A DNA stretch of 64,000 nucleotides, taken from sequence record EF437941; one strand, written 5' to 3'. This document shows, piece after piece, positions 1,877 to 54,013 of the stretch; position 1 is the first letter of the stretch, and each line of letters opens with the position of its first letter. The position numbers and the translations under genes are program-made. This DNA is from Escherichia phage Phi1. Under the pieces are notes generated by a model, which was not told the origin of the DNA, did not search any database, and saw only the letters and a list, made by a program, of their open reading frames with translations.

Positions 1877-3676
1877 ATGCTAATGTTTAATAACTCCGTT
1901 AAATGGTTTACCGGAATTGTAGAAAACAGGGAAGACCCATTAATGCTGGGGCGTGTTCAGGTTAGGATTCATGGTATACATCCCTCGCTATCCGCACACG
2001 GTGACATTCAAGGTCTTCCAACCGAAGATCTATTATGGATTACGCCAGTACAAGATATTACAAGCGCGGCGATCTCCGGTATAGGTCAAAGCCCTACTGG
2101 TATTGTTGAAGGTTCAATGGTATTTGGTTTGGCTTTAGATGAACGTTATTTAAACTGCGTTATTCTGGGTACTATTGCCGGACAATATACAGAGAAACCA
2201 CTCACTACAGAGGGTTTTTGCGACCCTTCTGGTGCATATCCTCGTTATATTGGTAATGATGTTAATATTCTTGCTCGTGGCGGTATTAACCCAGAAACCG
2301 GACAAACAACAAAACCTGATAGTGTCTATATTCGAGATGAAAACACTGGAGTTGCAGTAAATCCAGACGACGAGCCATTAGACCAAATTCCGGTTGATGA
2401 TAATCCTGATTTTACAATCGAAAAAATGCTGCGGGGCGATGAGGGATATCGCGAGAAATGGTATCTTGATTCAGAAGGATATCCGACAATAGGCATCGGG
2501 CATTTGATCATTTATAAGAAAACCAGTGATCTGGGTATTATCAATAATGAACTTTCTAAGCTGGTAGGGCGTGAAGTTACAAACGGAAGACTTACCGCCG
2601 AAGAAGTTAGTAAAGTATTTGCCGACGATATAGAAAAGACTCGTCGTGATATGCGCAAACATCCACGAATTGCACCTGTCTATAATAAATGTAATGCCTC
2701 ACGTCGTATGGCATTAGAAAATATGGCGTTTCAAATGGGTGTTGGTGGATTGGGTAAATTTAAGAATAGTCTTGCTGCGATGTTAGCGGAAGAATGGAAA
2801 CAAGCCTATGATGGATTACGTCAATCGGTATGGGCTAACCAAACTCCAGGACGCTCCAGCCGTGTTTCTAAAATTATTTTAACTGGTAACTTAGAATCAT
2901 ATGGCGTAATTGCTCCAAAGAAAGAGGAATCAATTTCTGATGATCCGCGAGCACGTTTGAGAAATGCCCGTATTGCTGCCTATAAGACGCAGAGAGCAGA
3001 AGAAGACCCAGAAGCACCGTTTACCCCACAAGACACACGAATCATGTTTAAAGAGCCTAAGAGTTCGTATTCCGCAAGGTATCCATATAACCATGTGTAC
3101 GAGTCAGAGAGCGGTCATATTATCGAGATTGATGATACTCCTTCTCATGAGCGATATCATCGTAAACATCCTTCGGGTACATTTGAAGAAACCAGACCGG
3201 ACGGAACGAGGGTAGAAAAGATTGAAGGTGATGATTATCTAATCGTTAAACAAGGCAGGAAAGTAAACGTTAAGGGTAATTTGCAAGTTGTTGTTGAAGG
3301 TGACGCGCAAGTTTATTATATGGGTAATGTGATGCAAACCGTTGATGGTAACGTCACTGAATTTATTCGTGGTAATGTTAATCAGACCGTTGAGGGTACA
3401 GCTAATATGCATGTTGTAGGTGATGTTACCGCTCAGCTTGACGCTAATTTAACGGCTAATGTCAAGGGTAATGCTGAATTAATGATCGAGGGTAACACTA
3501 CAGAGACAATTAAAGGTAACTATGATTTAACCGTTGAGGGTAATTTTAATATGACCGTCAATGGCACTAAATCAGATCAGGTTAATGGTGACTGGTCCCG
3601 TAATTGTGGTGCAAGCGTTAAAGATATTGCATCTGGTACAGTTAAAATTGATGGTAGCCGTATTGATCTTGGGTGA
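1877..3676 (+). CDS. 5: baseplate hub subunit and tail lysozyme gp5
   Basis: 599 aa; T4-lysozyme-like motif YLDSEGYPTIGIGH; C-terminal VxGxxxxx beta-helix repeats; synteny. Confidence 0.9.
   Translation: MLMFNNSVKWFTGIVENREDPLMLGRVQVRIHGIHPSLSAHGDIQGLPTEDLLWITPVQDITSAAISGIGQSPTGIVEGSMVFGLALDERYLNCVILGTIAGQYTEKPLTTEGFCDPSGAYPRYIGNDVNILARGGINPETGQTTKPDSVYIRDENTGVAVNPDDEPLDQIPVDDNPDFTIEKMLRGDEGYREKWYLDSEGYPTIGIGHLIIYKKTSDLGIINNELSKLVGREVTNGRLTAEEVSKVFADDIEKTRRDMRKHPRIAPVYNKCNASRRMALENMAFQMGVGGLGKFKNSLAAMLAEEWKQAYDGLRQSVWANQTPGRSSRVSKIILTGNLESYGVIAPKKEESISDDPRARLRNARIAAYKTQRAEEDPEAPFTPQDTRIMFKEPKSSYSARYPYNHVYESESGHIIEIDDTPSHERYHRKHPSGTFEETRPDGTRVEKIEGDDYLIVKQGRKVNVKGNLQVVVEGDAQVYYMGNVMQTVDGNVTEFIRGNVNQTVEGTANMHVVGDVTAQLDANLTANVKGNAELMIEGNTTETIKGNYDLTVEGNFNMTVNGTKSDQVNGDWSRNCGASVKDIASGTVKIDGSRIDLG
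3290..3640 (+). repeat. gp5 C-terminal beta-helix coding repeats
   Basis: Translated repeats of the form V-E/D-G-N-x-x-x-T/N (VEGDAQVYY, VDGNVTEF, VEGTANMH, VKGNAELM, IEGNTTET, VEGNFNMT, VNGTKSDQ). Confidence 0.8.
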
Positions 3677-3684
3677 GGTAACTA

Positions 3685-4251
3685 ATGGTTGAAATTCTTC
3701 CGATGAGTTCAAAATTGGAGGATATCAGCGAGCGAGAAATCTTTGAGGTGGTGTTCTCTTATAAAGCAACTCCACCAGATGCAAATACCACATACACGAT
3801 TAAAGAGTTTAAGATCAGCGAGTATCGCCCTAATAAGGGCGTTACCGTTGAAGAAACTAAAATATCTGGTGAGTATAGGGATAGTTTTTCGCTTGGCGCG
3901 GATTCTCTTAAATATATAACGAAAGATAGAATTAAAAAATCTGCCGGAAGTTTTGATGATTTACCAGATCCAACTACCGCAGATCTATATTATTTTAACG
4001 CTCCTACACGTCTACAGGAGGTTTATACTTATAAAGTAACCCTAACCTATATCCAATCTGTTTCAGAGTCTTCTGGTGGTTCTGGTGAAGGAAATAGTGG
4101 TGGTTCCAATAGCCGAGAGGGTGCTGGTGAAACTAATCCTCCTCCGGTAGTAACCGAACACACAATAGAGAAAGTTTATACTCAAACCGTTTTTGGAAAT
4201 TGGGATGTGTGGGCGCAGCAACTAAGAGATTATGTACATAGGGGTGTTTAA
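3685..4251 (+). CDS. hypothetical protein in the gp5.1/5.3 position
   Basis: 188-aa ORF with RBS GTGAGG; Gly/Ser-rich segment [17 protein letters not shown]; lies between genes 5 and 5.4. Confidence 0.5.
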
Positions 4252-4544
4252 TGGCTGGATTATCCTACGATAAAGCTAAAACTACAGGGCACGGAAACTA
4301 CCCACCTACTGTAATTAATGCAACTCAATCTAAGGTATTTGTTGAGGGTATCCCTGTATTAGTCGAAGGAGACCCAATTACACCACATACAAAAACAACA
4401 AAGCCTTATGATACACACGGGGGAACTACGGTCGCCAGTACCCCGAAAGTATTTGTTACCGGAAAGAAAGCAATTCAAATGGCAGATCGTATTAGCTGTG
4501 GCGATACCGTCGCTATGGCATCACCGAAGGTATTCATAAAATGA
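4251..4544 (+). CDS. 5.4: PAAR-repeat spike tip protein gp5.4
   Basis: 97 aa, same length as T4 gp5.4; coupled start/stop junctions with neighbours. Confidence 0.7.
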
Positions 4545-6445
4545 CAAAGCAAAAGATTACACAAATTCCTGATATTTTTAATGCTGCTACGTTTGATGAA
4601 ATTAAAAGCGCATTAACAGACTGGATGAGAAACCAGGAAGAATTTAAAGATTTTGATTTTAATGGTGCTGGTATTAACGTATTGATGGACTTGCTCGCAT
4701 ATAACACTCTGTATATTCAGCAATTCGCTAACGCCGCGCTATATGAATCTTTTATCAGAACGGCAATTAAGCGTAGTTCAGTTGTTCAAGCCGCGCAAGA
4801 TTTAGGATATTTGCCAGCAAGTAAAACTAGTGCATCGACTACAATTATGTTGCACGTAACACATCCGCGAAATCCGGCAAGTATTCGAATCCCACGAGGA
4901 ACTAAATTTATTGCAAGTGTGGATCGCCAGACGTCTTATCCGTTTGTGACTACCGAAGACGTTGTGAGCGTTTTAGGTTCAAATGGTTTATATACGCCTA
5001 TGCTTAAAGTCGCACAAGGTCGTATTGTTCGTACAGAAATGTTATTTGATCCGAAGAAACAAATTCTGATCCGCGATCCTGATATTGACCGCGCTCAGGT
5101 TAAATTGTGGGTAGACGGTGCTGAATGGAAAGACTGGACGCGAGAAAGCATTGTTAATGCAACTGGCGCTAGTAATATTTTCTATATGCGTGAAACCGTA
5201 GACGGTCATACAGAAATCTTCTTTGGTGAAGGTGAATCAACTTTATCTGCTGCTGGCGGGGCGCTGGAAGCAAATTATATTGGTGGACTTAAGCCGTCAA
5301 CTGGTGCTAATATTGTTATCGAATATATTAGCACTAAAGGCGCGGAAGCAAACGGTTCAGTTAATTTTACATATGCGGATACCCTTGCATCTATCTCTAT
5401 TGTTAAAATTATTGAGAATCCGACAAATGATCGTGATTATGTCGGTGCAGATGGTGGTGGTGACCCTGAATCAATCGAACGTATCCGTGAACTTGCTCCG
5501 GTAATGCGTGAATCTCAGCGTCGTTGTGTTACTGCTTCTGACTATGAGGCTTTTGTATCTAGCCGTTTTGGTAGTATTGTTCAGGCGGTACAATGTTTCA
5601 CCGACCGAGAAAAACCGGGTTATGCTTTTGTTGCTGTTAAGCCTAAATCTGGCTTGCGTTTGACAACTGTTCAAAAAGAAGATATGCGGGATTATCTGGC
5701 AAAATATAATCTTGCCCCTATCACGCCGAGCATCATTGACCCTAACTATCTGTATATTAAACAGAATATTAAAGTTTCCTATTCAATCAATGACTTGTCA
5801 GAATCAGAGCAGTGGTTGCGCGGTGCGGTTATTGATCAGATTGATGCATATTATACCGACGAAGTGGAAATTTTTAACCAGACCTTTAGTAAGTCTAAAA
5901 TGCTTGCTCGTATTGACAAAGCTGATGTATCTGTGATAGGTTCTAGTGCAGAAATAGAGATGGTGCGAGAGATCGACAACTTCTATAAAGCGCCTATGGC
6001 TGGAATCAAGTTTTTAAACCAGTATAAGAGCGGAATCAAGTCTAGTTCATTCAACTTCGAAAAGGACGACAAGCAATATCCGATCCATTATGTAAGTACA
6101 GAAATGAACAAAGAATCCGGTTTAGCTAAATTGCTGGTTGGACCTTTCCCTGTTGATTCTACAATCGCTTTACCGCACTATTCCGGCACTGATTTTGATA
6201 AAGAGGTTATCGACGGTGCGGACCTATACTTTGAGGTTGGAGAGGTTCAGCATTATGACGACCTTATTTCATGGGATCTGGGTAAACTGAATATCAATAG
6301 CGATCGCTTTACTGGTTCATATATTGAGTTGACAGCTAAACCGATTGCTGATAACATCTTTACTAAAGACGGTTCTTTGATCGTGTTTGAAAACGATCTC
6401 CGTCCTCAGTACACAACTATTAGTCTGGAGGCAATTGCTCAATGA
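4541..6445 (+). CDS. 6: baseplate wedge protein gp6
   Basis: 634 aa; overlapping junctions with 5.4 and 7; synteny. Confidence 0.85.
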
Positions 6446-44139: not shown

Positions 44140-44657
44140 TGACAGAAACTAAACCTATGTTAAAATTTGTTGTTCCTGTAAAAAAATTAGAGATAAACGG
44201 GAAACATATCAAGATCCCAAAAATGGGGATTAAGCAACATCGATTATTAAAAGATGTTCGTAGCTGTGATGAAACATTAAAGATTCTTCTTGATTCAATC
44301 TGTCCTGGGTTAAACGCTGCCGAGTCTGAATTGGTTATGCTTAACCTTTGTGCGTTTAATGGTAAGTGTCTGGAAGAAAAAGATGGTCTTAAGCTGTCTG
44401 ATGTGTATATTTGTACAGAGACTGAATTTACTTTAAATGGTAAAGTCTTTAAATTTAAAAATCCAATGTACACTTCTGACCCCATTATCGATGACGCTGA
44501 TTTCTTGAGTCATCATTATCACGATCCTAGTGTAGACTTCCATGATTTCCCAGCTTTTATTATGGATTGGGCTACAGGATTAAGAAAAACTATTGCGCTG
44601 GATACACCGGAAGGTACTATCTATGGTGGAATTAACATATTGGATCGCCTATCATGA
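44139..44657 (+). CDS. 28: baseplate hub distal subunit gp28
   Basis: 172 aa (T4 gp28 about 177 aa); synteny. Confidence 0.75.
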   Translation: MTETKPMLKFVVPVKKLEINGKHIKIPKMGIKQHRLLKDVRSCDETLKILLDSICPGLNAAESELVMLNLCAFNGKCLEEKDGLKLSDVYICTETEFTLNGKVFKFKNPMYTSDPIIDDADFLSHHYHDPSVDFHDFPAFIMDWATGLRKTIALDTPEGTIYGGINILDRLS

Positions 44658-46387
44658 ATGACGCATTAACATCATTTCGCGGGATGCGCAAGGAAGCGGA
44701 AGAAAACCCGATTGATAAACTTAACAAATTAGATAAACTTGATTCTATTGATAATTTGCAAGCCGCTACCGAATTGGTGGCGGAGACAGTAGAACAAAAA
44801 TCTAATGAAGTTGTTGGTGCGGTCGAGGATAACACCGCAGCCAATGAATTGACGGCAGAAAATACACAATCTACCGCTGGCAATACCAAAAAAACTTATG
44901 AAGAATTGCAAAAACTCAATAATTTCTCTTCTCAGATGAATGAGAAATTACGTGGTTTTGGTGTTATGATGGAACGTAGATTTGGTGTTGTCAGTAAAAT
45001 GGCTAGCGGTATTGGTGCGATTGAAGAAGCACTGAAAAAACCGGAACAACCGCAAACAATGCCATCACCTCAGCCAGTTTTGCCTACTGTACCGGAACAG
45101 CCTAATAATGACAACTATCAAGGTCTTCCAAAGAAAAAACCGGATGTTGATGACCGAAAGAAAAAGAACGCCGCAGATAAGCGTAATGCCGATTCTATGG
45201 AAAATCTTCTTAAAGTTGTTCGTGGAGGATTTAAAGAAACCATAGGTATCTCTAATAAGGTCTTAGGGATGTTATTTAAGATCACCTTGACCGCTATGGC
45301 AGAAGCCGCAAAATGGGGTGCTATTTTGATGGGTATTGTTTTTGTCATTGATACCCTGATGGTTCATTTCAGATATTGGAGTGATTTATTCGAAACAAAA
45401 TTCAATGAATTTATGGATAAGGCCGGAGGATGGGCTGGTCCTATTAGCGATATTTTAACTACTGTTCGTCAGGTTCGAGATTATTGGTCTAAAGGAGAAT
45501 ATAAAGAATTAATTAAATCGCTGGTTATGGGTATTGGTGATGCATTCTATAAAACCTTTATCCAACTTGATCGAATTATCACTACTGGTATTGCTAAAAT
45601 TCTTCGTATGATCCCTGGTATGGGTGATTATGCCGATAAGTTAGAATACGGTGCTTTAAAGTCTGCTGTCGCTCAAGGCTATACGCCAAATGAAAGAGAA
45701 CTCGAATTAATGGATAAGGTCGAGTCTGAACATGAAGAAGACAAATATGGAGAGCGTACTGGTTGGACCGGAAAAGCCCGTGACATTGGCGAAGCTATTG
45801 GGGATTCTATTAAGGATAAAGTTAACGAAGGTCTTGTTAGTCTGGGCTGGAGAGATCAAAAGGATGTTGACGCAGAGAAACGACAAGAAGAATTAAAACG
45901 CGGGGAATATAAGTCTGTTTCTGCTGAACAACGATCTGCTAGTCGTAAACTTAGAATTAAAAGCGAGGGCGCGATCAATAATATTAATGAAGTTATGGAG
46001 AATTTGAGCGGTGACTATGACAAAGAAAGAATGGGAGAGTTGAAAAAGGATATTGATGTTTACCGTGAGCAAGTTCAAGATCCTACATTAGTTGAAAGTG
46101 ATCGTTCTCAGTTAGAGCGTCTTATTGAAAAATTTGATGAGATGTATGCTGATAAAACTAATGGTGTGGTTCCAACTAATCCTGTTCCTGCAACTGAAAC
46201 GGAAACAGCAAAACAAGCGGAACGTACTGAACAAATGCAGAAACAAGCTGCAATCCAGCAACAAACGACAAATCAGACCTCAAACGTAAATAATACACAA
46301 ATTGTAACAAACAATAGAACTGTTAAACAGGGTGCACCAACAACTAGAATTGATGCCCCCGGTACAATTAATATGGGGAACTTTTAA
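44654..46387 (+). CDS. 29: baseplate hub / tail length determinator gp29
   Basis: 577 aa (T4 gp29 about 590 aa); synteny. Confidence 0.8.
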   Translation: MNDALTSFRGMRKEAEENPIDKLNKLDKLDSIDNLQAATELVAETVEQKSNEVVGAVEDNTAANELTAENTQSTAGNTKKTYEELQKLNNFSSQMNEKLRGFGVMMERRFGVVSKMASGIGAIEEALKKPEQPQTMPSPQPVLPTVPEQPNNDNYQGLPKKKPDVDDRKKKNAADKRNADSMENLLKVVRGGFKETIGISNKVLGMLFKITLTAMAEAAKWGAILMGIVFVIDTLMVHFRYWSDLFETKFNEFMDKAGGWAGPISDILTTVRQVRDYWSKGEYKELIKSLVMGIGDAFYKTFIQLDRIITTGIAKILRMIPGMGDYADKLEYGALKSAVAQGYTPNERELELMDKVESEHEEDKYGERTGWTGKARDIGEAIGDSIKDKVNEGLVSLGWRDQKDVDAEKRQEELKRGEYKSVSAEQRSASRKLRIKSEGAINNINEVMENLSGDYDKERMGELKKDIDVYREQVQDPTLVESDRSQLERLIEKFDEMYADKTNGVVPTNPVPATETETAKQAERTEQMQKQAAIQQQTTNQTSNVNNTQIVTNNRTVKQGAPTTRIDAPGTINMGNF

Positions 46388-47445
46388 TGAAAATTAGTGT
46401 TATCAATGATGCCGTTGATAGCTTTAAAGCGGGGGTTAAAACCTCCGCTGGTTTTACCTCAAAAAATAAAGGGAAAACATTAACCGCTCAATTCCCCGCT
46501 GAACGTGCTAGCGGTAATGATGCTAGCGGTTATTATATCAACGACTTATATAATAATGGTCTGTTATTCACTGCATACGATTATACATCTCGTACTACTG
46601 GATCGTTGCGTGATTTCAGGAAAAAGAAAAATGTTGCTAGCGGTTTTGGCGGTAGCGTTAATATCGCTGGTTTTGATTTAAATTTGGGAGGGAGAAATGC
46701 TGCATTTGATCGAGAGGCAATTGCTAATATTCTTCTTCCTCGTAGTCAATCTGACGTTGACGCTGCTAGCCATAAGTTTAATGATGTTGGTGAATCTGTC
46801 ATTTCTCGCGGCGGTGGTACTTTAGGCGGTGCTCTTTCTAATATGGCATCTACTGCCGTTTTTGGTGGTATCGAAAGTATTACTGGTGGATACCTTGCCG
46901 ATCACGGTGAACAGATTTATAATACTGCGCGAAGCATGTATGCGGGTGCTGACGCACGAACTAAAAACTACGTATGGCATTTAACCCCACGTAGTATTGA
47001 AGACCTTCGCAATATTCTGATCATATACGAAACGTTTTTAGAATTGTCTTATGGATCTAGTGGTATTTCCAGCACCGCAAAAGAATTAAAAGCGGAAGTT
47101 GATGCGTGGTATAAAAATACACTATTGAGAAAATCCACCCCAGAGGAAGCGAAGAGAAATGATACTCTGTTTGAAGGGATCACCGATTTTCTATCAAACG
47201 CAATTACTGTATCTAACCCGACAATATGGATGATCTCTAACTTCGGTAAGCGTACATCGTTTGAAGGGCGTAGCGATGCATTTGGCCCCGCTCAGATCTC
47301 AAGTGTACGTCTGGACAAGTCGCCTGATGGTAAGTTTAATGGCCTTGCTATTTCTCCTAACTTGCCTAGTACATTTGTTCTTGAAGTATCATTTAGAGAG
47401 ATCTTGACACTTTCCCGTGGTACTATATTTGGGAGTGCGGTATAA
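46387..47445 (+). CDS. 48: baseplate tail tube cap gp48
   Basis: 352 aa; synteny. Confidence 0.8.
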   Translation: MKISVINDAVDSFKAGVKTSAGFTSKNKGKTLTAQFPAERASGNDASGYYINDLYNNGLLFTAYDYTSRTTGSLRDFRKKKNVASGFGGSVNIAGFDLNLGGRNAAFDREAIANILLPRSQSDVDAASHKFNDVGESVISRGGGTLGGALSNMASTAVFGGIESITGGYLADHGEQIYNTARSMYAGADARTKNYVWHLTPRSIEDLRNILIIYETFLELSYGSSGISSTAKELKAEVDAWYKNTLLRKSTPEEAKRNDTLFEGITDFLSNAITVSNPTIWMISNFGKRTSFEGRSDAFGPAQISSVRLDKSPDGKFNGLAISPNLPSTFVLEVSFREILTLSRGTIFGSAV

Positions 47446-48377: not shown

Positions 48378-48384
48378 TAAGCGA

Positions 48385-48410
48385 AAGGCGGGGATAATCC
48401 CCGCCTTTTT
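48385..48410. terminator. bidirectional hairpin terminator between gene 54 and the lipoprotein gene
   Basis: AAAGGCGGGGA-TAAT-CCCCGCCTTT stem-loop with A/T runs on both sides. Confidence 0.7.
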
Positions 48411-48894
48411 ATTTTGCTAAATCATTGCAATATTTTAGTGCCTTAGTTTGAAATTCTGCGCTGTTAAGTTCTTCATAACGGTCATAATCACCGTTTAATG
48501 CTGCCTTTCTTGCTTCTTGCTCTATCTGCATGTCAGACATGATAATACAGCGATCCCGCGCTTTCATCTTCTCAAGTTGTATAGACTCTTCTTTCTGCTT
48601 GCGCAATTCTTCTTGACGCTTCTTTTCTTCTTGTGCTTTCTCTTCCCGCGCTTCTTTGATTGCATCCTTGAACATCTGCGTTTGTGGTGCTAAACCAACT
48701 TTAACGCGATCCACGTCTCGACGTTCCATTTTAGAAATAAAGCATGATTCGATCTGATCATCACTTGCATATGCTGCTTTACATTCACGAAGCAAGAAAA
48801 CCGGATCTGATTTAGCATTCATCATAGCTTCCATGTTGGCACAACCAGTAAGCATGAATGCAGCCGCAAGACCAATCAGTTTAATCATTTTCAT
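48409..48894 (-). CDS. putative lipoprotein (signal peptide plus lipobox LTGC)
   Basis: N-terminus MKMIKLIGLAAAFMLTGC; Lys/Glu-rich coiled-coil-like middle; start overlaps the stop of the upstream ADP-ribosyltransferase gene. Confidence 0.6.
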   Translation of the reverse strand: MKMIKLIGLAAAFMLTGCANMEAMMNAKSDPVFLLRECKAAYASDDQIESCFISKMERRDVDRVKVGLAPQTQMFKDAIKEAREEKAQEEKKRQEELRKQKEESIQLEKMKARDRCIIMSDMQIEQEARKAALNGDYDRYEELNSAEFQTKALKYCNDLAK

Positions 48895-49715
48895 TTAGTC
48901 ACCTCACCGAAAATTGTAAATTGTCTACGATTCTCATCGCCGAAAGATTCTACTACGTCGTTTACCTTGACGCAAGTCCCGCGCGGTAAAATTACTTCAC
49001 ATTCGCAAGGGTTCCATGCAATTGACCCAACAACAAAACCTTTATGATCTTTTACGTCAATTACCCATGATACATTACAAGAATGTTGCATCTTTCCGGT
49101 CATGGATTCATATCGATTCTCACAATAAAGGCTAGTGCTATTTGAAAGCCAGCCTCCAAAGATGATCGGTGTCATGCTGGTCGATACAAAGTTTTTAAAG
49201 GTAAACTCCTTATCTTCAATAATACGCTCTATTGTCTGAATGTCAAGATGTTGACCGCGATAAAGAGTACCGTTTAACTTTTCGGTTTTATCCATGACAC
49301 AATCCATCAAATCAACAATCTCTGATATCTCATCGGTCATGTCTTCTTCCCCTAAGAGAGCACCATTTACCCATTCGTATTGTTCAGACACATAATCACA
49401 GATTGCATTATATTCTGCTGGGGTTATGTTGTTATGTTTGTAATGTTTGAATACATTATCTCCAAAGTCTTCGGAGTGTACTTCATACATCACATTAATG
49501 ATTTTCTTGACAAATCCATAATCTTGTGTCTCACGCTCAAGGAAGCGGATAACCTTCACATAATCATCAAAGTTAATCTGATCGCTGATCATCTCAGTGA
49601 TCATGTAACCATTAATCCCCTCAATGTCATATGTTTCGATGTAATTATCCATACGTTCCATCATTGATTCGCGTGATTCTTCTGAAAGACGAAAATCCTG
49701 TAATTTCTTGAACAT
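48891..49715 (-). CDS. ADP-ribosyltransferase, Alt-like paralogue (274 aa)
   Basis: R-S-E motifs LYRGQH / FKNFVSTSMTPIIFGGW / ECEVILPRG parallel to those of Alt; RBS GGAGG. Confidence 0.7.
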   Translation of the reverse strand: MFKKLQDFRLSEESRESMMERMDNYIETYDIEGINGYMITEMISDQINFDDYVKVIRFLERETQDYGFVKKIINVMYEVHSEDFGDNVFKHYKHNNITPAEYNAICDYVSEQYEWVNGALLGEEDMTDEISEIVDLMDCVMDKTEKLNGTLYRGQHLDIQTIERIIEDKEFTFKNFVSTSMTPIIFGGWLSNSTSLYCENRYESMTGKMQHSCNVSWVIDVKDHKGFVVGSIAWNPCECEVILPRGTCVKVNDVVESFGDENRRQFTIFGEVTK

Positions 49716-49793
49716 TTTAAACCTCCCATATAACAGAAAACGGGGCTAGTATAAAACTAGTCCCCGTTTGAGTCAACCATTATTTCTTAAAAA

Positions 49794-51845
49794 TTACATT
49801 TTAAATTTATCTGGCATTGCGTCTACAGATACCAGATCAGCGATAAGCTGACGTAGAGTTGCCTTATCTGCTTTCTTACGTTCGGTTTTAGCTTCGCTAA
49901 TGAAGCTGGAGAAAGACAGGTCAGAAGCAGGTTTAACAACACCTTCACGGATGAATGCATCACCGTCCGCGATCATCTCACCAGATTCTTGTAATGCTGC
50001 CAGTTCACTTTTGTTCATAATATGTGCCTCAATGTAATAAGTTTCTTGTGAATCCGTAGATGCCGTAGCACGAGTTACCGTATCAAAGGATAACACAACA
50101 CCGCGAGGAAGTAAAATCTCGCATTCTTTGTAAGCAAATGCTTTGTTACCTACTGGCAATACAGGGATGTTTTCCGCGCCAGCAATGGAGAAAGCAACAT
50201 TAGCGCCACCTTCACCGCGAGATCCAGCCATAGAATCTACCCCAGCAACGGCACTAGCCACGTTTGCATTCCAGCCGCCAAAAATGTTAGGTGCAAGGGA
50301 AGTGCTCACGTAGTTTTTAAAGTAAAACGCTTTTTGCTTACGTGCAGTTTCCCACATTTGAGACCGGAAGTCCATACCACGATACAGAATAGTACCCGGA
50401 TCAAGTTTAACGCCATAGTTAGAGAAGGCATTATCCAGTGCATCGCACATCTTGACCAATTCTTCTGGATCTGCGATTCCCTCAAACTCTTCCAGCTTGC
50501 GATCAGTTAGGAAGTTGTTCATATTGATGTATGCTGCATCGGCATATTCGCTCAACACAAAACCTTCCGCGCCCGGCAGATCAAGATCAATATCTGCCAT
50601 CATTTCACCCATGTTGCTAGCAATTGCTTCAAACATACCGGACGCAACATTACGAAGGGCATCGGTTTTAATCTGGGTGATATGACTACGCAGCATTTCA
50701 GCTTTTACATCTGCTGGCATAGACTGGTCTACTCGATCCATTGCCAGGGCGGTGATCTTGTTTTCGAATACTTCCTCGCTCATGATTTCTTTTAAGCGTT
50801 TGATTGATGCTGCGATAACTTCCGCAGACAACGGATCATATTGATCCTGAACTTTTACCAGTTCGCTTACTGCGTATTTTGCATCGGCTTCGCTTTCAAA
50901 AATAGTACGCATGAAACCATAGCGAGTGATAATATCACTTGTCCAGTCATTCAGAGAACGGGCGGTTGAACGTTCTAAGGCTTGACGGTCAATCAGAGTA
51001 TTAAACTGTTTCTTAGGTTCTGCTTCGGTGATATCTTCTTCCGGTTTAAGATTAATTTTTTCTGGATGATTCACATAGTCGCTGTTATAGGTCGCTTGAG
51101 TTTTCAGCATTTCTTCTTTAGTCAAACGAGATTTAGCCGCTACGCGTTGTTCCGCTTCCGCGTTTCGTTCTTCTTCTGACACAAGACTAGCCGCATATGC
51201 CTCATCTTTAGTCAGAGATTCACCAGTAGCCTTAGATACCCAGCGATCACCTAAATCACTTTCTACTTTAGTGAACAAGGATTCATCAAGTTTAATCCCT
51301 TTAATCTTATCAATCGCCATCCCGCGACGCTTGACAACAACTAAAGCGATCTTTTTGCTGGTCATTACTTCCTGCTGGAATACTTCAAACTTCGGTGTAC
51401 GACGCACCAAACGCTCTATAACGCGCTTAACCAGTTCGGTCTTACCTTTCATGCGGGATACGTTAAAACGGAACATAACAGCGTCTAATTGCGCTTTACG
51501 GGCTGTTTCCATAACCACATCAAACGCACTTGCCATAACTGCAATCGGGTTATCGCCTAGACCATTTTTAAGCTGTACAATACGACCGCTTTTGTTCATT
51601 TCGCACAGTACAACATGTGCGGTCTTGTCACCCATACGAATGATTTTAGGTGTTTTGTTGGTGAAGTTACAAAGACGGACAATCACATCTTTATCGCGTG
51701 TCTGTACTGCAAAAAGCTGTTTAGGATTCTGCTTCGGCTTTAAGCACTGTACCGGAGCAATACTGCCAAAGTTTTCTTCCTCTTCCGTCAACAGCCATTT
51801 CTCGAAAGATTCAATCATTAGATCGTCGATTTCTAAGTTAAACAT
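49794..51845 (-). CDS. alt: ADP-ribosyltransferase Alt
   Basis: 683 aa (T4 Alt 682 aa); LYRGMD / FKNYVSTSLAPNIFGGW / ECEILLPRG; position after gene 54. Confidence 0.85.
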   Translation of the reverse strand: MFNLEIDDLMIESFEKWLLTEEEENFGSIAPVQCLKPKQNPKQLFAVQTRDKDVIVRLCNFTNKTPKIIRMGDKTAHVVLCEMNKSGRIVQLKNGLGDNPIAVMASAFDVVMETARKAQLDAVMFRFNVSRMKGKTELVKRVIERLVRRTPKFEVFQQEVMTSKKIALVVVKRRGMAIDKIKGIKLDESLFTKVESDLGDRWVSKATGESLTKDEAYAASLVSEEERNAEAEQRVAAKSRLTKEEMLKTQATYNSDYVNHPEKINLKPEEDITEAEPKKQFNTLIDRQALERSTARSLNDWTSDIITRYGFMRTIFESEADAKYAVSELVKVQDQYDPLSAEVIAASIKRLKEIMSEEVFENKITALAMDRVDQSMPADVKAEMLRSHITQIKTDALRNVASGMFEAIASNMGEMMADIDLDLPGAEGFVLSEYADAAYINMNNFLTDRKLEEFEGIADPEELVKMCDALDNAFSNYGVKLDPGTILYRGMDFRSQMWETARKQKAFYFKNYVSTSLAPNIFGGWNANVASAVAGVDSMAGSRGEGGANVAFSIAGAENIPVLPVGNKAFAYKECEILLPRGVVLSFDTVTRATASTDSQETYYIEAHIMNKSELAALQESGEMIADGDAFIREGVVKPASDLSFSSFISEAKTERKKADKATLRQLIADLVSVDAMPDKFKM

Positions 51846-51878
51846 TTTATATCCTCTAGTTGATAACCTATAAACCTA

Positions 51879-51886
51879 TATTTATG
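51879..51886 (-). promoter_or_regulatory. possible late promoter variant CATAAATA upstream of alt
   Basis: One mismatch from TATAAATA on the - strand, about 35 nt upstream of the alt ATG. Confidence 0.3.
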
Positions 51887-51912
51887 AAAAAGGGGCTTAA
51901 CGCCCCCCTTTT
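51887..51912. terminator. bidirectional hairpin terminator
   Basis: AAAAA-GGGGC-TTAAC-GCCCC-CCTTTT. Confidence 0.6.
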
Positions 51913-52447: not shown

Positions 52448-52966
52448 TTAGTTATTTTTTAATTGCTCATCTTGCAATAGGGAAATCACATGCTGGCGAT
52501 GTTCTTCCGATTGAGGGACACCGAAAAAGTTTGTTTTGTAGAAATACTCTAATCGGTCTTCTCGTGTGCTCTCTTCCATCATGATCGCGGGTAGTCCGAG
52601 ATTTCGGAAACGTCGCTTTTCTGCTGGCGTAAAATCACTGTAATACAGCATAGAATCATCGTTACCAGCAATGCTAAACTCATCATTCATGAAGGAGAAT
52701 ATTGCGTTTAAACGCTGTTTACCGTCCACGATTTCGATCTCATAGCGAGAGCCATCATCAATCTTAGCCATTGCGATAGCACCAACCGGAAAATCATTAA
52801 TCAGGTTTTCGATAAACATACGTTTGTTTTCGGTGTCCCATACCAAAGGACGCTGATAATCTGGGTTCATGTTGATATAGCCATCTTCTAACCACGCCTC
52901 ATAAACAGAGATGACAAAGTTTTTAGTATTGGTATAGTAACGGCGTTTAGGCGTTAAACGGTTCAT
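52448..52966 (-). CDS. DUF262 / ParB-like nuclease-NTPase domain protein
   Basis: Start set to ATG at 52966 (RBS AGGAGA); PDYQRPLVW ... FIENLINDFPVGAI ... IVDGKQRLNAI matches the DUF262 signature (pFQR..W / DGQQR). Confidence 0.65.
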   Translation of the reverse strand: MNRLTPKRRYYTNTKNFVISVYEAWLEDGYINMNPDYQRPLVWDTENKRMFIENLINDFPVGAIAMAKIDDGSRYEIEIVDGKQRLNAIFSFMNDEFSIAGNDDSMLYYSDFTPAEKRRFRNLGLPAIMMEESTREDRLEYFYKTNFFGVPQSEEHRQHVISLLQDEQLKNN

Positions 52967-52967
52967 G

Positions 52968-53300
52968 TTATAGTCTCCTGAATGGATCATCACGTAAATC
53001 AATATCTTTTAAGAACTCATCCCATGAATGGCGGATATTGTTCTTAATTCTCCAGATAAGCGCAGGGATTGAACGCTCTCCCATCTGGAAGTAAGGATCA
53101 TATGATCCGTATGCCCAATATGCTACTACAATTCCACAATCAGCGCAATAATATTCTATTTCACTTGCTGGCGACCAAAGTCCATCAATATGATCGGTGA
53201 TCCTGCTTTCGATGTTATGGCTATGGCAATCAGGGCAACGGATGCAATGACCTTGTTTATCGTAATTTGACGTTAGCGAATACTTAAACAATCTCATCAT
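52968..53300 (-). CDS. Zn-ribbon protein (110 aa)
   Basis: CIRCPDCHSH ... YCADCG Cys/His clusters; translationally coupled to neighbours. Confidence 0.5.
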   Translation of the reverse strand: MMRLFKYSLTSNYDKQGHCIRCPDCHSHNIESRITDHIDGLWSPASEIEYYCADCGIVVAYWAYGSYDPYFQMGERSIPALIWRIKNNIRHSWDEFLKDIDLRDDPFRRL

Positions 53301-54013
53301 AGATCCTTATTGGCTTCAAATACTGCCTTTGCGAATCCTCGCGGGGTAAGTGACCTGATAGTCTTTGTTCTGGTTCCTTTCCCGCCTAGCTTAGAATGCT
53401 GTTTACTGTACCCTTTATTAATATGCAACGGTTTCTTTTCTGGCATTATAAAGCCTTGTCCGGTCCATAAGCAAGTCTTTTTCGGGTACATATCACGGGC
53501 GGCAATATACTCAGGAAACGTAGGATGTTTATCATCTTCCGGCAAATAACCGCCATATTCCCACGGATGGAACATGTAATCAGGCTTACGCCACATACTA
53601 GAGATAACGCTTACAGGATTCTCTATCATGTAGGGAACTCCTAGCCATTCACCCAAATAAGCGGTTATTTTAGCTGCCCGTACATCATGAACTTGAATCA
53701 ATGGTCCTTGTTCTCGTTTCTTTCGTTCAAAGTGTGCAGCGCCACTAACAGCTAAATTGGTGCACGGTGGGAATGCAAATATAATATCCGGTTTCCCCCA
53801 TTCAAGGTCCATTGCTCTTTCCAGCCAGTTCAAATCAATCCAGGTGTTTACATAAGTAATGTTTGGATGTTCAAATCTGGTATTATACTTTTTGTATGTA
53901 CCGTGGTCGGCGTCATCCGCATTAAAGCAGACTACCTTATGACCTGCTTTAGCCCATTCTAGCCCCATTATCCCCGATCCGTCAAAGTTGCAGAATATTA
54001 ATTTTTGTTTCAT
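53297..54013 (-). CDS. C5-cytosine methyltransferase-like protein (truncated, 238 aa)
   Basis: Motif I FCNFDGSGIMGLEWAKAG (FxGxGG), motif IV FAFPPCTNLAVSG (PC), motif VI MIENPVS (ENV-like), C-terminal SLTPRGFAKAV; no obvious target-recognition domain. Confidence 0.55.
   Translation of the reverse strand: MKQKLIFCNFDGSGIMGLEWAKAGHKVVCFNADDADHGTYKKYNTRFEHPNITYVNTWIDLNWLERAMDLEWGKPDIIFAFPPCTNLAVSGAAHFERKKREQGPLIQVHDVRAAKITAYLGEWLGVPYMIENPVSVISSMWRKPDYMFHPWEYGGYLPEDDKHPTFPEYIAARDMYPKKTCLWTGQGFIMPEKKPLHINKGYSKQHSKLGGKGTRTKTIRSLTPRGFAKAVFEANKDL

Follow-up and report, generated by a model that had tools for sequence, protein, structure and literature searches.

A truncated Alt paralogue and a predicted lipoprotein exchanged as a hypervariable cassette downstream of alt in RB49-like phages

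The stretch of DNA analyzed here, referred to below as the window, comprises 64,000 nucleotides (nt) of Escherichia phage Phi1 (EF437941). Its minus strand carries three neighboring genes: alt, which encodes an Alt-like ADP-ribosyltransferase (ART) of 683 amino acids (aa); a short open reading frame (ORF) of 274 aa, which encodes a second ART; and a 161-aa ORF, the product of which begins with a lipoprotein signal. All three had been described in an original prediction made from the sequence, and all three ORFs were recovered intact (Table 1). The plus-strand genes gp27-gp28-gp29-gp48-gp54 run toward them, such that gp54 and the lipoprotein gene converge. The 3.6 kb surrounding these genes are 98.5-99.6% identical to the corresponding DNA of 57 sequenced RB49-like Krischvirus coliphages, with Cognac and GEC-3S being closest (99.6%).

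The trio formed by alt, the short ART gene, and the lipoprotein gene is already represented in public annotation and in the literature. RefSeq describes RB49p183, the RB49 counterpart of the 274-aa ORF, as [quoted passage not shown]. The counterpart of the 161-aa ORF is a "putative lipoprotein" in the GenBank record of phage W115, a "Lipoprotein" in UniProt (KFS-EC copy), and only a "hypothetical protein" in several other records. Nolan et al. (2006, PMC1524935) listed RB49ORF183c, ORF188c of Aeromonas phage 44RR, and T4 alt.-1/alt.-2 as paralogous alt duplications. A literature search for RB49p182 and RB49p183 found no functional or proteomic study and no paper beyond this genome comparison. 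The only fresh point of the present analysis is that the lipoprotein gene is exchanged as a hypervariable cassette between near-identical phages, which is a modest new lead.

The 274-aa ORF contains the three motifs, LYRGQH, FKNFVSTSMTP, and ECEVILPRG, from which a second ADP-ribosyltransferase had been proposed. Residues 82-266 match Pfam PF03496 (ADPrib_exo_Tox) with an E value of 4.3e-16 and 59.3 bits (cut-off 23.4), and the Alt protein of the window matches the same family with E = 2.3e-9; the motif match is thus far above chance. Profile matches to structures in the PDB include C3, VIP2, iota Ia, and CDTa. In alignments of homologues of 23-83% identity, one of which contains nine sequences, R153, S178-T179-S180, and E238-x-E240 are invariant. 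The R, STS, and ExE motifs are also kept in more distant copies (30-45% identity), and the ORF is intact at 264-288 aa in all relatives. Structural analysis had been suggested as the check on this assignment. An AlphaFold2 (AF2) model with a predicted local distance difference test (pLDDT) score of 82.3 and a predicted template modeling (pTM) score of 0.79 contains the ART fold; Foldseek matches it to Vis, Certhrax, C3bot, and CDTa in the PDB at E values from 1.6e-10 to 1e-8 with a probability of 1.00, and iota Ia is matched as well. These data establish the 274-aa protein as a bona fide member of the R-S-ExE ADP-ribosyltransferase family, with a predicted fold of the Alt/VIP2 type. The ExE motif is that of C3/iota-type ARTs, and by analogy the short ART would be specific for arginine.

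The short ART had been described as unrelated to Alt outside the catalytic signature. This description applies to the first ~66 residues, which are helical and private to the short protein, but not to the remainder, as a profile-profile alignment (hhalign) pairs residues 67-273 with residues 397-610 of Alt (probability 99.9, E = 7e-32). The full-length Alt of the window and its T4 counterpart share 27% identity across 695 aligned columns (E = 2e-61), and the window protein matches PHROG 802 with E = 6e-180. The short ART is 31% identical to residues 413-593 of T4 Alt (NP_049811; E = 1e-23), with which it shares the R-STS-ExE signature and the genomic neighborhood. In contrast to T4 Alt, however, it is only 274 aa long and lacks both the N-terminal ~390 residues and a C-terminal tail of ~70 residues with a conserved ...P.KF at its end. 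An alignment shows that the tail is missing throughout the short-ART clade, whereas full-length and other truncated Alt-like proteins retain it. Because the short ART scores higher against T4 Alt (88 bits, E = 1e-23) than against the Alt encoded beside it (67 bits, E = 1e-16), it is an old paralogue rather than a recent local copy. Sequence comparison therefore identifies the short ART as a truncated Alt paralogue.

The original prediction also held that the locus is not T4-like. This is overstated, because alt.-1, alt.-2, and alt.-3 occupy the gp54-alt gap of T4; alt.-1 and alt.-2 are alt-derived remnants, and it is with these that the literature groups RB49ORF183c. The gp54-alt locus and an origin by alt duplication are common to T4 alt.-1/alt.-2, ORF187c/188c of 44RR, and the short ART. 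The T4 genes, however, are broken and stem from the N-terminal part of alt, matching residues 27-126 of the window's Alt, whereas the Krischvirus copy is an intact catalytic half. Neither the short ART nor the lipoprotein shows similarity to T4 alt.-1, alt.-2, or alt.-3, and it is the lipoprotein that T4 lacks at this locus.

The short ART shows no significant similarity to T4 ModA, T4 ModB, or RB49 ModB (best BLASTP E values of 0.07-0.4), and it differs from ModA and ModB in belonging to Pfam and PHROG families of the Alt type. It resembles them in being a small, stand-alone R-S-E enzyme for which early expression is predicted. The RB49 segments and the window together contain exactly three ART genes, encoding Alt, its short paralogue, and one ModB-like protein beside srd. 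The last of these lies outside the window (L006 8917-9420) and encodes 167 aa that are closer to T4 ModB (33% identity, E = 8e-11) than to T4 ModA (23%, E = 2e-6); no ModA gene and no second Mod gene were found in the same sequences. T4 also has three ARTs, but Krischvirus has only the one Mod gene, which is ModB-like. By analogy, a ModA-like role of the short ART in a second wave of modification is plausible.

Expression signals were examined next to the coding sequences. The 78-nt gap between alt and the short ART gene contains TTGACT-17 nt-TATACT, a predicted sigma-70 promoter of the early type that is annotated as a promoter at the same site in GEC-3S. The site fits the RB49 early promoter described as GTTGAC with an A-rich upstream region (PMC1524935). 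The pattern TTGAC(A/T)-17-TATACT is conserved in JK32 and in the metagenomic relatives L007, L011, and L013, in which the short ART is only ~45% identical. Its -10 hexamer overlaps the loop and 3' arm of the alt terminator hairpin, and the spacer and the bases that follow also lie within the hairpin. The hairpin (-18.9 kcal/mol, z = -5.45) is more stable than all of 200 shuffled sequences and is kept, with altered stem bases, in L007, L011, and L013. From 48 to 52 kb, the minus strand contains no TATAAATA late box. Ahead of alt, CATAAATA matches the T4 late-promoter box at 7 of 8 positions, ~33 nt from the start codon, and is a predicted late promoter; the distant relative L007 shows the same layout, a terminator followed by AATAAATA. 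In T4, alt is a late gene, the product of which enters the virion, and ModA and ModB are early proteins (PMC9697503). The 5' untranslated region of alt (51859-51868, minus strand) further contains GGTTATCAAC(T/G)AG, which is kept in L007 and L020, where the Alt protein is just 38-46% identical; this element could serve as a translational operator or belong to the leader.

The short ART and lipoprotein genes overlap by ATGA (...ACT AAA TGA / ATG AAA ATG...), with GAGG 8 nt upstream as a ribosome-binding site, in agreement with the coupling that had been proposed. Because a conserved sigma-70 promoter within the alt terminator precedes the short ART gene and its product lacks the N-terminal half and tail of Alt, we infer from these consensus-level signals that the enzyme is early and cytoplasmic. 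The ART-lipoprotein operon is therefore probably early, and the short ART is probably made in the infected cell. T4 Alt, in contrast, is a late, capsid-packaged arginine mono-ADP-ribosyltransferase.

The original prediction had instead suggested that the short ART could be an injected host-modifying enzyme with a superinfection-exclusion or envelope-targeting partner. In this model, the enzyme would travel in the phage head and enter the cell as Alt does, and the lipoprotein would be its functional partner. This explanation, which we consider quite unlikely, would accord with the descent of the short ART from Alt, its position adjoining alt, and the very deep conservation of its adjacency to the lipoprotein gene; head packaging is moreover thought to apply to many phage Alt/VIP2-type ARTs (PMC9503650). 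Set against it are the conserved early-type promoter, the missing late box, and the missing Alt N-terminal half and C-terminal tail. The N-terminus of the short ART (49680-49715, minus strand), MFKKLQDFRLSE, is loosely similar to the leader of T4 IPI (MKTFKEF...E) and includes L-x-E, the type of motif cut by the prohead protease. As a capsid-targeting leader it was rejected: it is not conserved in homologues P0044-P0047, and the same loose pattern matches the ModB homologue, the T4 relative of which is an early protein. The partnership fares no better, as lipoprotein alleles are swapped independently of the ART and the two products are predicted to reside in different compartments. Several points do weigh against an early, non-packaged short ART. 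A promoter scan found 12 sites where shuffled sequences gave 10.7, so that the case for the promoter lies in its position and its conservation rather than in enrichment. Late read-through of the alt terminator is possible and could bring some late synthesis and hence packaging. Finally, the early, non-packaged state is a prediction from sequence, and no Krischvirus virion proteome covering the 274-aa ORF was found in the literature. It could also be argued that the short ART is a decaying, functionless duplicate, since tandem alt duplications decay in T4 as alt.-1 and alt.-2 (PMC1524935). The intact ORF in all relatives, the R, STS, and ExE motifs kept at 30-45% identity, the conserved promoter and ribosome-binding site, and the confidently predicted ART fold make this highly improbable. 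Our preferred reading thus remains that of an early, intact paralogue.

The 161-aa protein was evaluated for a positive n-region, a hydrophobic h-region, and a lipobox with its cysteine at position 15-35. Its N-terminus, MKMIKLIGLAAAFMLTGC, has two lysines in the n-region and fits a PROSITE PS51257-like pattern with Cys18 as the lipid acceptor; G17 and C18 are invariant across the family, so that the lipobox (LTGC) recognized in the original prediction stands. An exhaustive hidden Markov model search of 1.84 billion representative proteins returned ~10 clusters, all of 155-174 aa and every one with a lipobox. In the family alignment, G17, C18, C38, C51, D60, G67, C116, G135, and C156 are invariant. 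The persistence of the lipid-acceptor cysteine and four other cysteines in family members of as little as 23% identity is good, if indirect, support for export, lipidation, and the formation of disulfides, and the protein has all the sequence hallmarks of an exported, lipid-modified, disulfide-bonded envelope protein. The residue after the lipobox cysteine is Ala or Ser, never Asp. Under the +2 rule of Lol sorting, this points to outer-membrane localization, and the +2 Ala of the window's protein predicts a location on the periplasmic face of the outer membrane.

The AF2 model of the lipoprotein (pLDDT 87.7) is all-helical and places the Lys/Glu-rich stretch in one predicted helix of 62 residues (72-133). 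It has no recognizable structural relative in the PDB or BFVD, and scans against Pfam, NCBIfam, and PADLOC gave nothing above threshold. A PHROG match to Cor (E = 0.0074) covers only residues 1-45, signal peptide included. IMG/VR scans for distant relatives yielded no pattern match (P0056) and no confirmed relative (P0057), and the family alignment was too divergent to supply search patterns. In every readable family context, even at 23-25% lipoprotein identity, the order is alt-ART-lipoprotein-|gp54 (L007-L009, L013, L020-L022): the lipoprotein gene lies directly 3' of the gene for a 264-288-aa ART, is convergent with gp54, and, where the contig extends far enough, follows an Alt of ~660 aa. 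The lipoprotein is thus a small orphan family confined to the RB49-like phage clade and always found 3' of the short ART, and the trio is an old, stable feature of that clade.

Within this stable arrangement, the lipoprotein gene is exchanged. Whisky is 99.7% identical to the window in Alt and 99.6% in the short ART but only 32% in the lipoprotein, the first 19 residues of which are identical; at the DNA level, the match drops from 100% to ~45% near position 48857. AV108 and JK32 carry further versions that were overlooked by tblastn with the window's protein. The mature protein exists as at least three alleles, which share 29-49% identity and are combined with two types of signal peptide in a mosaic fashion. 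In E26, the replacement is limited to the lipoprotein ORF; the DNA on either side still shares 93-100% identity with the window, and identity drops sharply at both gene borders. The ART remains 98-100% identical across lipoprotein alleles that share 29-33% identity. Since gp5 is at least 99% identical across 58 Krischvirus records, the lipoprotein is exceptionally polymorphic for the genus. The second type of signal peptide, MK(M/I)IKLIGLAALVAMLNGC, is found in AV108 (L017 6179-6691) and JK32 (L018 13401-13913); its lipobox, MLNGC, has Asn at -2 and falls outside the strict PROSITE pattern. Because this type is paired with two mature alleles, signal peptide and mature domain recombine separately. 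The GenBank record of E26 (MN655998, L019) shows no coding sequence at 4501-5010 despite an intact 170-aa ORF for the type-3 lipoprotein. An envelope protein that is predicted to be early, occurs in a single clade, is hypervariable, and moves between genomes by recombination shows the pattern typical of proteins at a conflict interface.

The exchange also bears on the proposed partnership of the ART and the lipoprotein, which it does not support. Overlaps of 4 nt are routine in this genome; in the gene table of GEC-3S, 11 of the 25 adjacent same-strand pairs overlap, five of them by exactly 4 nt. Because the two products belong to different compartments, the lipoprotein is swapped independently, and such overlaps are routine, the arrangement is better read as co-transcription than as a functional pair.

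Our studies allow us to propose an explanation for the locus as a whole, which we judge to be evenly poised between right and wrong: an array of alt, short ART, and lipoprotein genes in which an early, truncated Alt paralogue and a cassette-swapped envelope lipoprotein are joined by co-transcription only. Transcripts from alt would end at the alt terminator, where host RNA polymerase would initiate early in infection, and the short ART and lipoprotein genes would be co-transcribed from the sigma-70 early-type promoter embedded in that terminator. The short ART would be made in the cell and mono-ADP-ribosylate arginines of cytoplasmic host proteins in a second wave after injected Alt, with a timing resembling that of T4 ModA and ModB. 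The 161-aa protein would be exported by Sec, lipidated at Cys18, and anchored in the outer membrane on its periplasmic side; its predicted all-alpha fold would include two disulfides and a helical stalk rich in Glu and Lys. Its gene is exchanged as a gene-sized cassette between flanking genes that are 93-100% identical in DNA. In the envelope, the protein may perform an early "lytic-conversion" function, excluding superinfecting phage or protecting progeny from adsorption to debris, as T5 Llp does. The two proteins would act in different compartments, with nothing beyond co-transcription joining them. Of the elements of this explanation, the gene structure, the family and fold of the ART, the sequence features of the lipoprotein, the synteny, and the cassette exchange are shown by the data; early timing, absence from the capsid, arginine specificity, and outer-membrane location are predictions, and the exclusion function is a guess.

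Exclusion or debris protection of the T5 Llp kind, a variant directed at the tape-measure protein included, is our best guess, offered tentatively and by analogy; it is more likely to be wrong than right. Small phage envelope proteins of this sort include T5 Llp, T1/phi80 Cor, TP-J34 Ltp, and the periplasmic T4 Spackle; the present protein likewise has a lipobox, is predicted to be early, and evolves fast. T5 Llp also provides the precedent of a lipoprotein made early by a virulent phage (PMC11990801). More doubtful still is the broader proposal that the lipoprotein founds a new "lytic-conversion" family in virulent T4-type phages, that is, an early, outer-membrane protein that excludes competitors or shields progeny, is polymorphic by cassette exchange, and is possibly engaged in an arms race with the C-terminal half of gp29. 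Several observations tell against an exclusion function. Searches by sequence and by fold did not relate the lipoprotein to Llp, Cor, Ltp, Spackle, or TraT. Comparison of gp38 adhesin identity with lipoprotein allele, genome by genome, revealed no association: both gp38 types (at least 94% and ~82% identical to RB49) co-occur with type-1 and variant lipoproteins. Through gp38, RB49, Cognac, and Whisky make use of the O antigen and of a receptor that depends on OmpA (Efimov et al. 2022, PMC9569957), and Cognac and Whisky differ in lipoprotein allele despite the same gp38-mediated receptor use. Receptor masking by an allele matched to the phage's own receptor-binding protein, as for Llp and Cor, was rejected for lack of association with gp38. 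A Spackle-like inhibitor of the gp5 lysozyme was likewise rejected, as gp5 is at least 99% identical across all lipoprotein alleles and there is no homology or fold likeness to Spackle. The four discordant genomes described below belong with these points.

The lipoprotein could act as an exclusion factor against a part of the incoming tail that is exposed to the periplasm, such as the tape-measure protein gp29 or the hub. A precedent is Ltp of Streptococcus phage TP-J34, a lipoprotein that targets the tape-measure protein (PMC3952083). Between AV108 and JK32, divergence is limited to the C-terminal half of gp29 (46-69% nt identity), a patch in gp48, and the lipoprotein (41-62%), and the intervening DNA is mostly 84-100% identical, save for single windows of 74-80%. 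JK32 and Whisky are alike in both lipoprotein and gp29 type. All four genomes with variant gp29 fall among the eight with a variant lipoprotein, whereas none of the ~49 genomes with a type-1 lipoprotein has variant gp29. However, E26, 011D4, G37-3, and PHB13 combine a variant lipoprotein with type-1 gp29, and the type-3 lipoprotein is found with two different gp29 types. Only 2 kb separate the two genes, and linkage is the simplest explanation of the association that is left. Covariation with gp29, which had looked promising as evidence of a target in the first three genomes, was accordingly downgraded to probable linkage by the four discordant ones. With no Ltp-like helix-turn-helix repeat fold found in the lipoprotein either, a tape-measure target is unlikely. 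A different possibility is that the lipoprotein serves the envelope or lysis program of the phage itself, as a link between outer membrane and peptidoglycan, in lysis timing, or as a spanin accessory, rather than exclusion. The predicted outer-membrane anchor and the ~62-residue helix, similar in length to that of Braun's lipoprotein, would suit such a role, as would a weak NCBIfam match, short of the cut-off (E = 0.017), between the Whisky allele and alanine-zipper lipoproteins of the Lpp/OprI family and the conservation of position and presence through the clade. Housekeeping, however, does not predict 29-49% identical alleles swapped among ~99% identical phages; RB49 has spanins (pseT.2/pseT.3), a holin, and rI- and rIII-type genes annotated elsewhere, and the predicted expression is early, not late. 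We therefore regard this role as improbable, and an exclusion or debris-protection function remains our tentative choice.

Table 1. Positions of the genes and predicted signals in the window
Feature	Position	Strand	Evidence
alt, full-length Alt-like ADP-ribosyltransferase, 683 aa	49794..51845	-	ORF; RefSeq annotation in GEC-3S and RB49
Short Alt-paralogue ADP-ribosyltransferase, 274 aa (RB49p183/ORF183c)	48891..49715	-	Pfam, hhalign, AF2, Foldseek
Catalytic codons of the short ART	R153 49257-49259; S178 49182-49184; E238 49002-49004; E240 48996-48998	-	
Predicted lipoprotein, 161 aa (RB49p182)	48409..48894	-	Lipobox, invariant Cys, AF2
Parts of the lipoprotein gene	signal peptide codons 48844-48894; predicted lipid-modified Cys18 48841-48843; mature hypervariable cassette ~48426-48857	-	
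Terminator hairpin of the upstream gene, then CATAAATA (51886-51879)	51879..51910	-	Sequence; computed hairpin
Intrinsic terminator hairpin of alt, then UUUUCU	49738..49769	-	RNA fold, shuffles, conservation
Predicted sigma-70 early-type promoter of the ART-lipoprotein operon, TTGACT-17 nt-TATACT	49748..49776	-	Sequence, conservation, GEC-3S annotation
Bidirectional terminator between the lipoprotein gene and convergent gp54	48383..48409	both	Fold of -19.6 and -20.8 kcal/mol on the two strands; GEC-3S carries a terminator annotation on each strand

The interval 47.5-52.5 kb gave no match to an Rfam RNA family. Variation in the tail genes of Krischvirus was also recorded. The C-terminal half of gp29 and a patch of ~180 nt in gp48 are hypervariable cassettes (43-78% nt identity) within DNA that is 90-100% identical; the two genes lie at 44654-46387 and 46387-47445 of the window, and the corresponding cassettes lie at 3241-3957 and 4318-4497 of L017. 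The genes gp51, gp27, and gp28 occur as two haplotypes that are ~77-81% identical. The Whisky annotation (L004 7017-8695) divides gp29 into two ORFs, of 178 and 370 aa, where relatives have a single ORF of ~560-577 aa; the cause is a frameshift or an error of sequencing, unless the tape-measure gene is truly split in this phage. On the other side of alt, a stand-alone 184-aa GmrSD_N/DUF262 protein is encoded at 52448-53002 (minus strand), two genes from a DNA methyltransferase at 53297-54013 (minus strand). It matches Pfam with E = 5e-20 and the PADLOC models NsnA (E = 7e-21) and PD-T4-2_A (E = 4e-12), and is thus similar to a defence nuclease in its N-terminal domain, yet its carrier is a virulent phage.

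Krischvirus phages are used in therapy cocktails, and their three ARTs are divided differently from those of T4, into Alt, one ModB-like enzyme, and a predicted early paralogue of the Alt catalytic domain in place of ModA. This set offers a natural comparison for the use of ADP-ribosylation in programming host takeover. The lipoprotein is among the most polymorphic genes in a genus with ~99% identical structural genes. If it mediates exclusion, it would affect the mutual interference of cocktail phages and would be the first such lipoprotein in T4-type phages.

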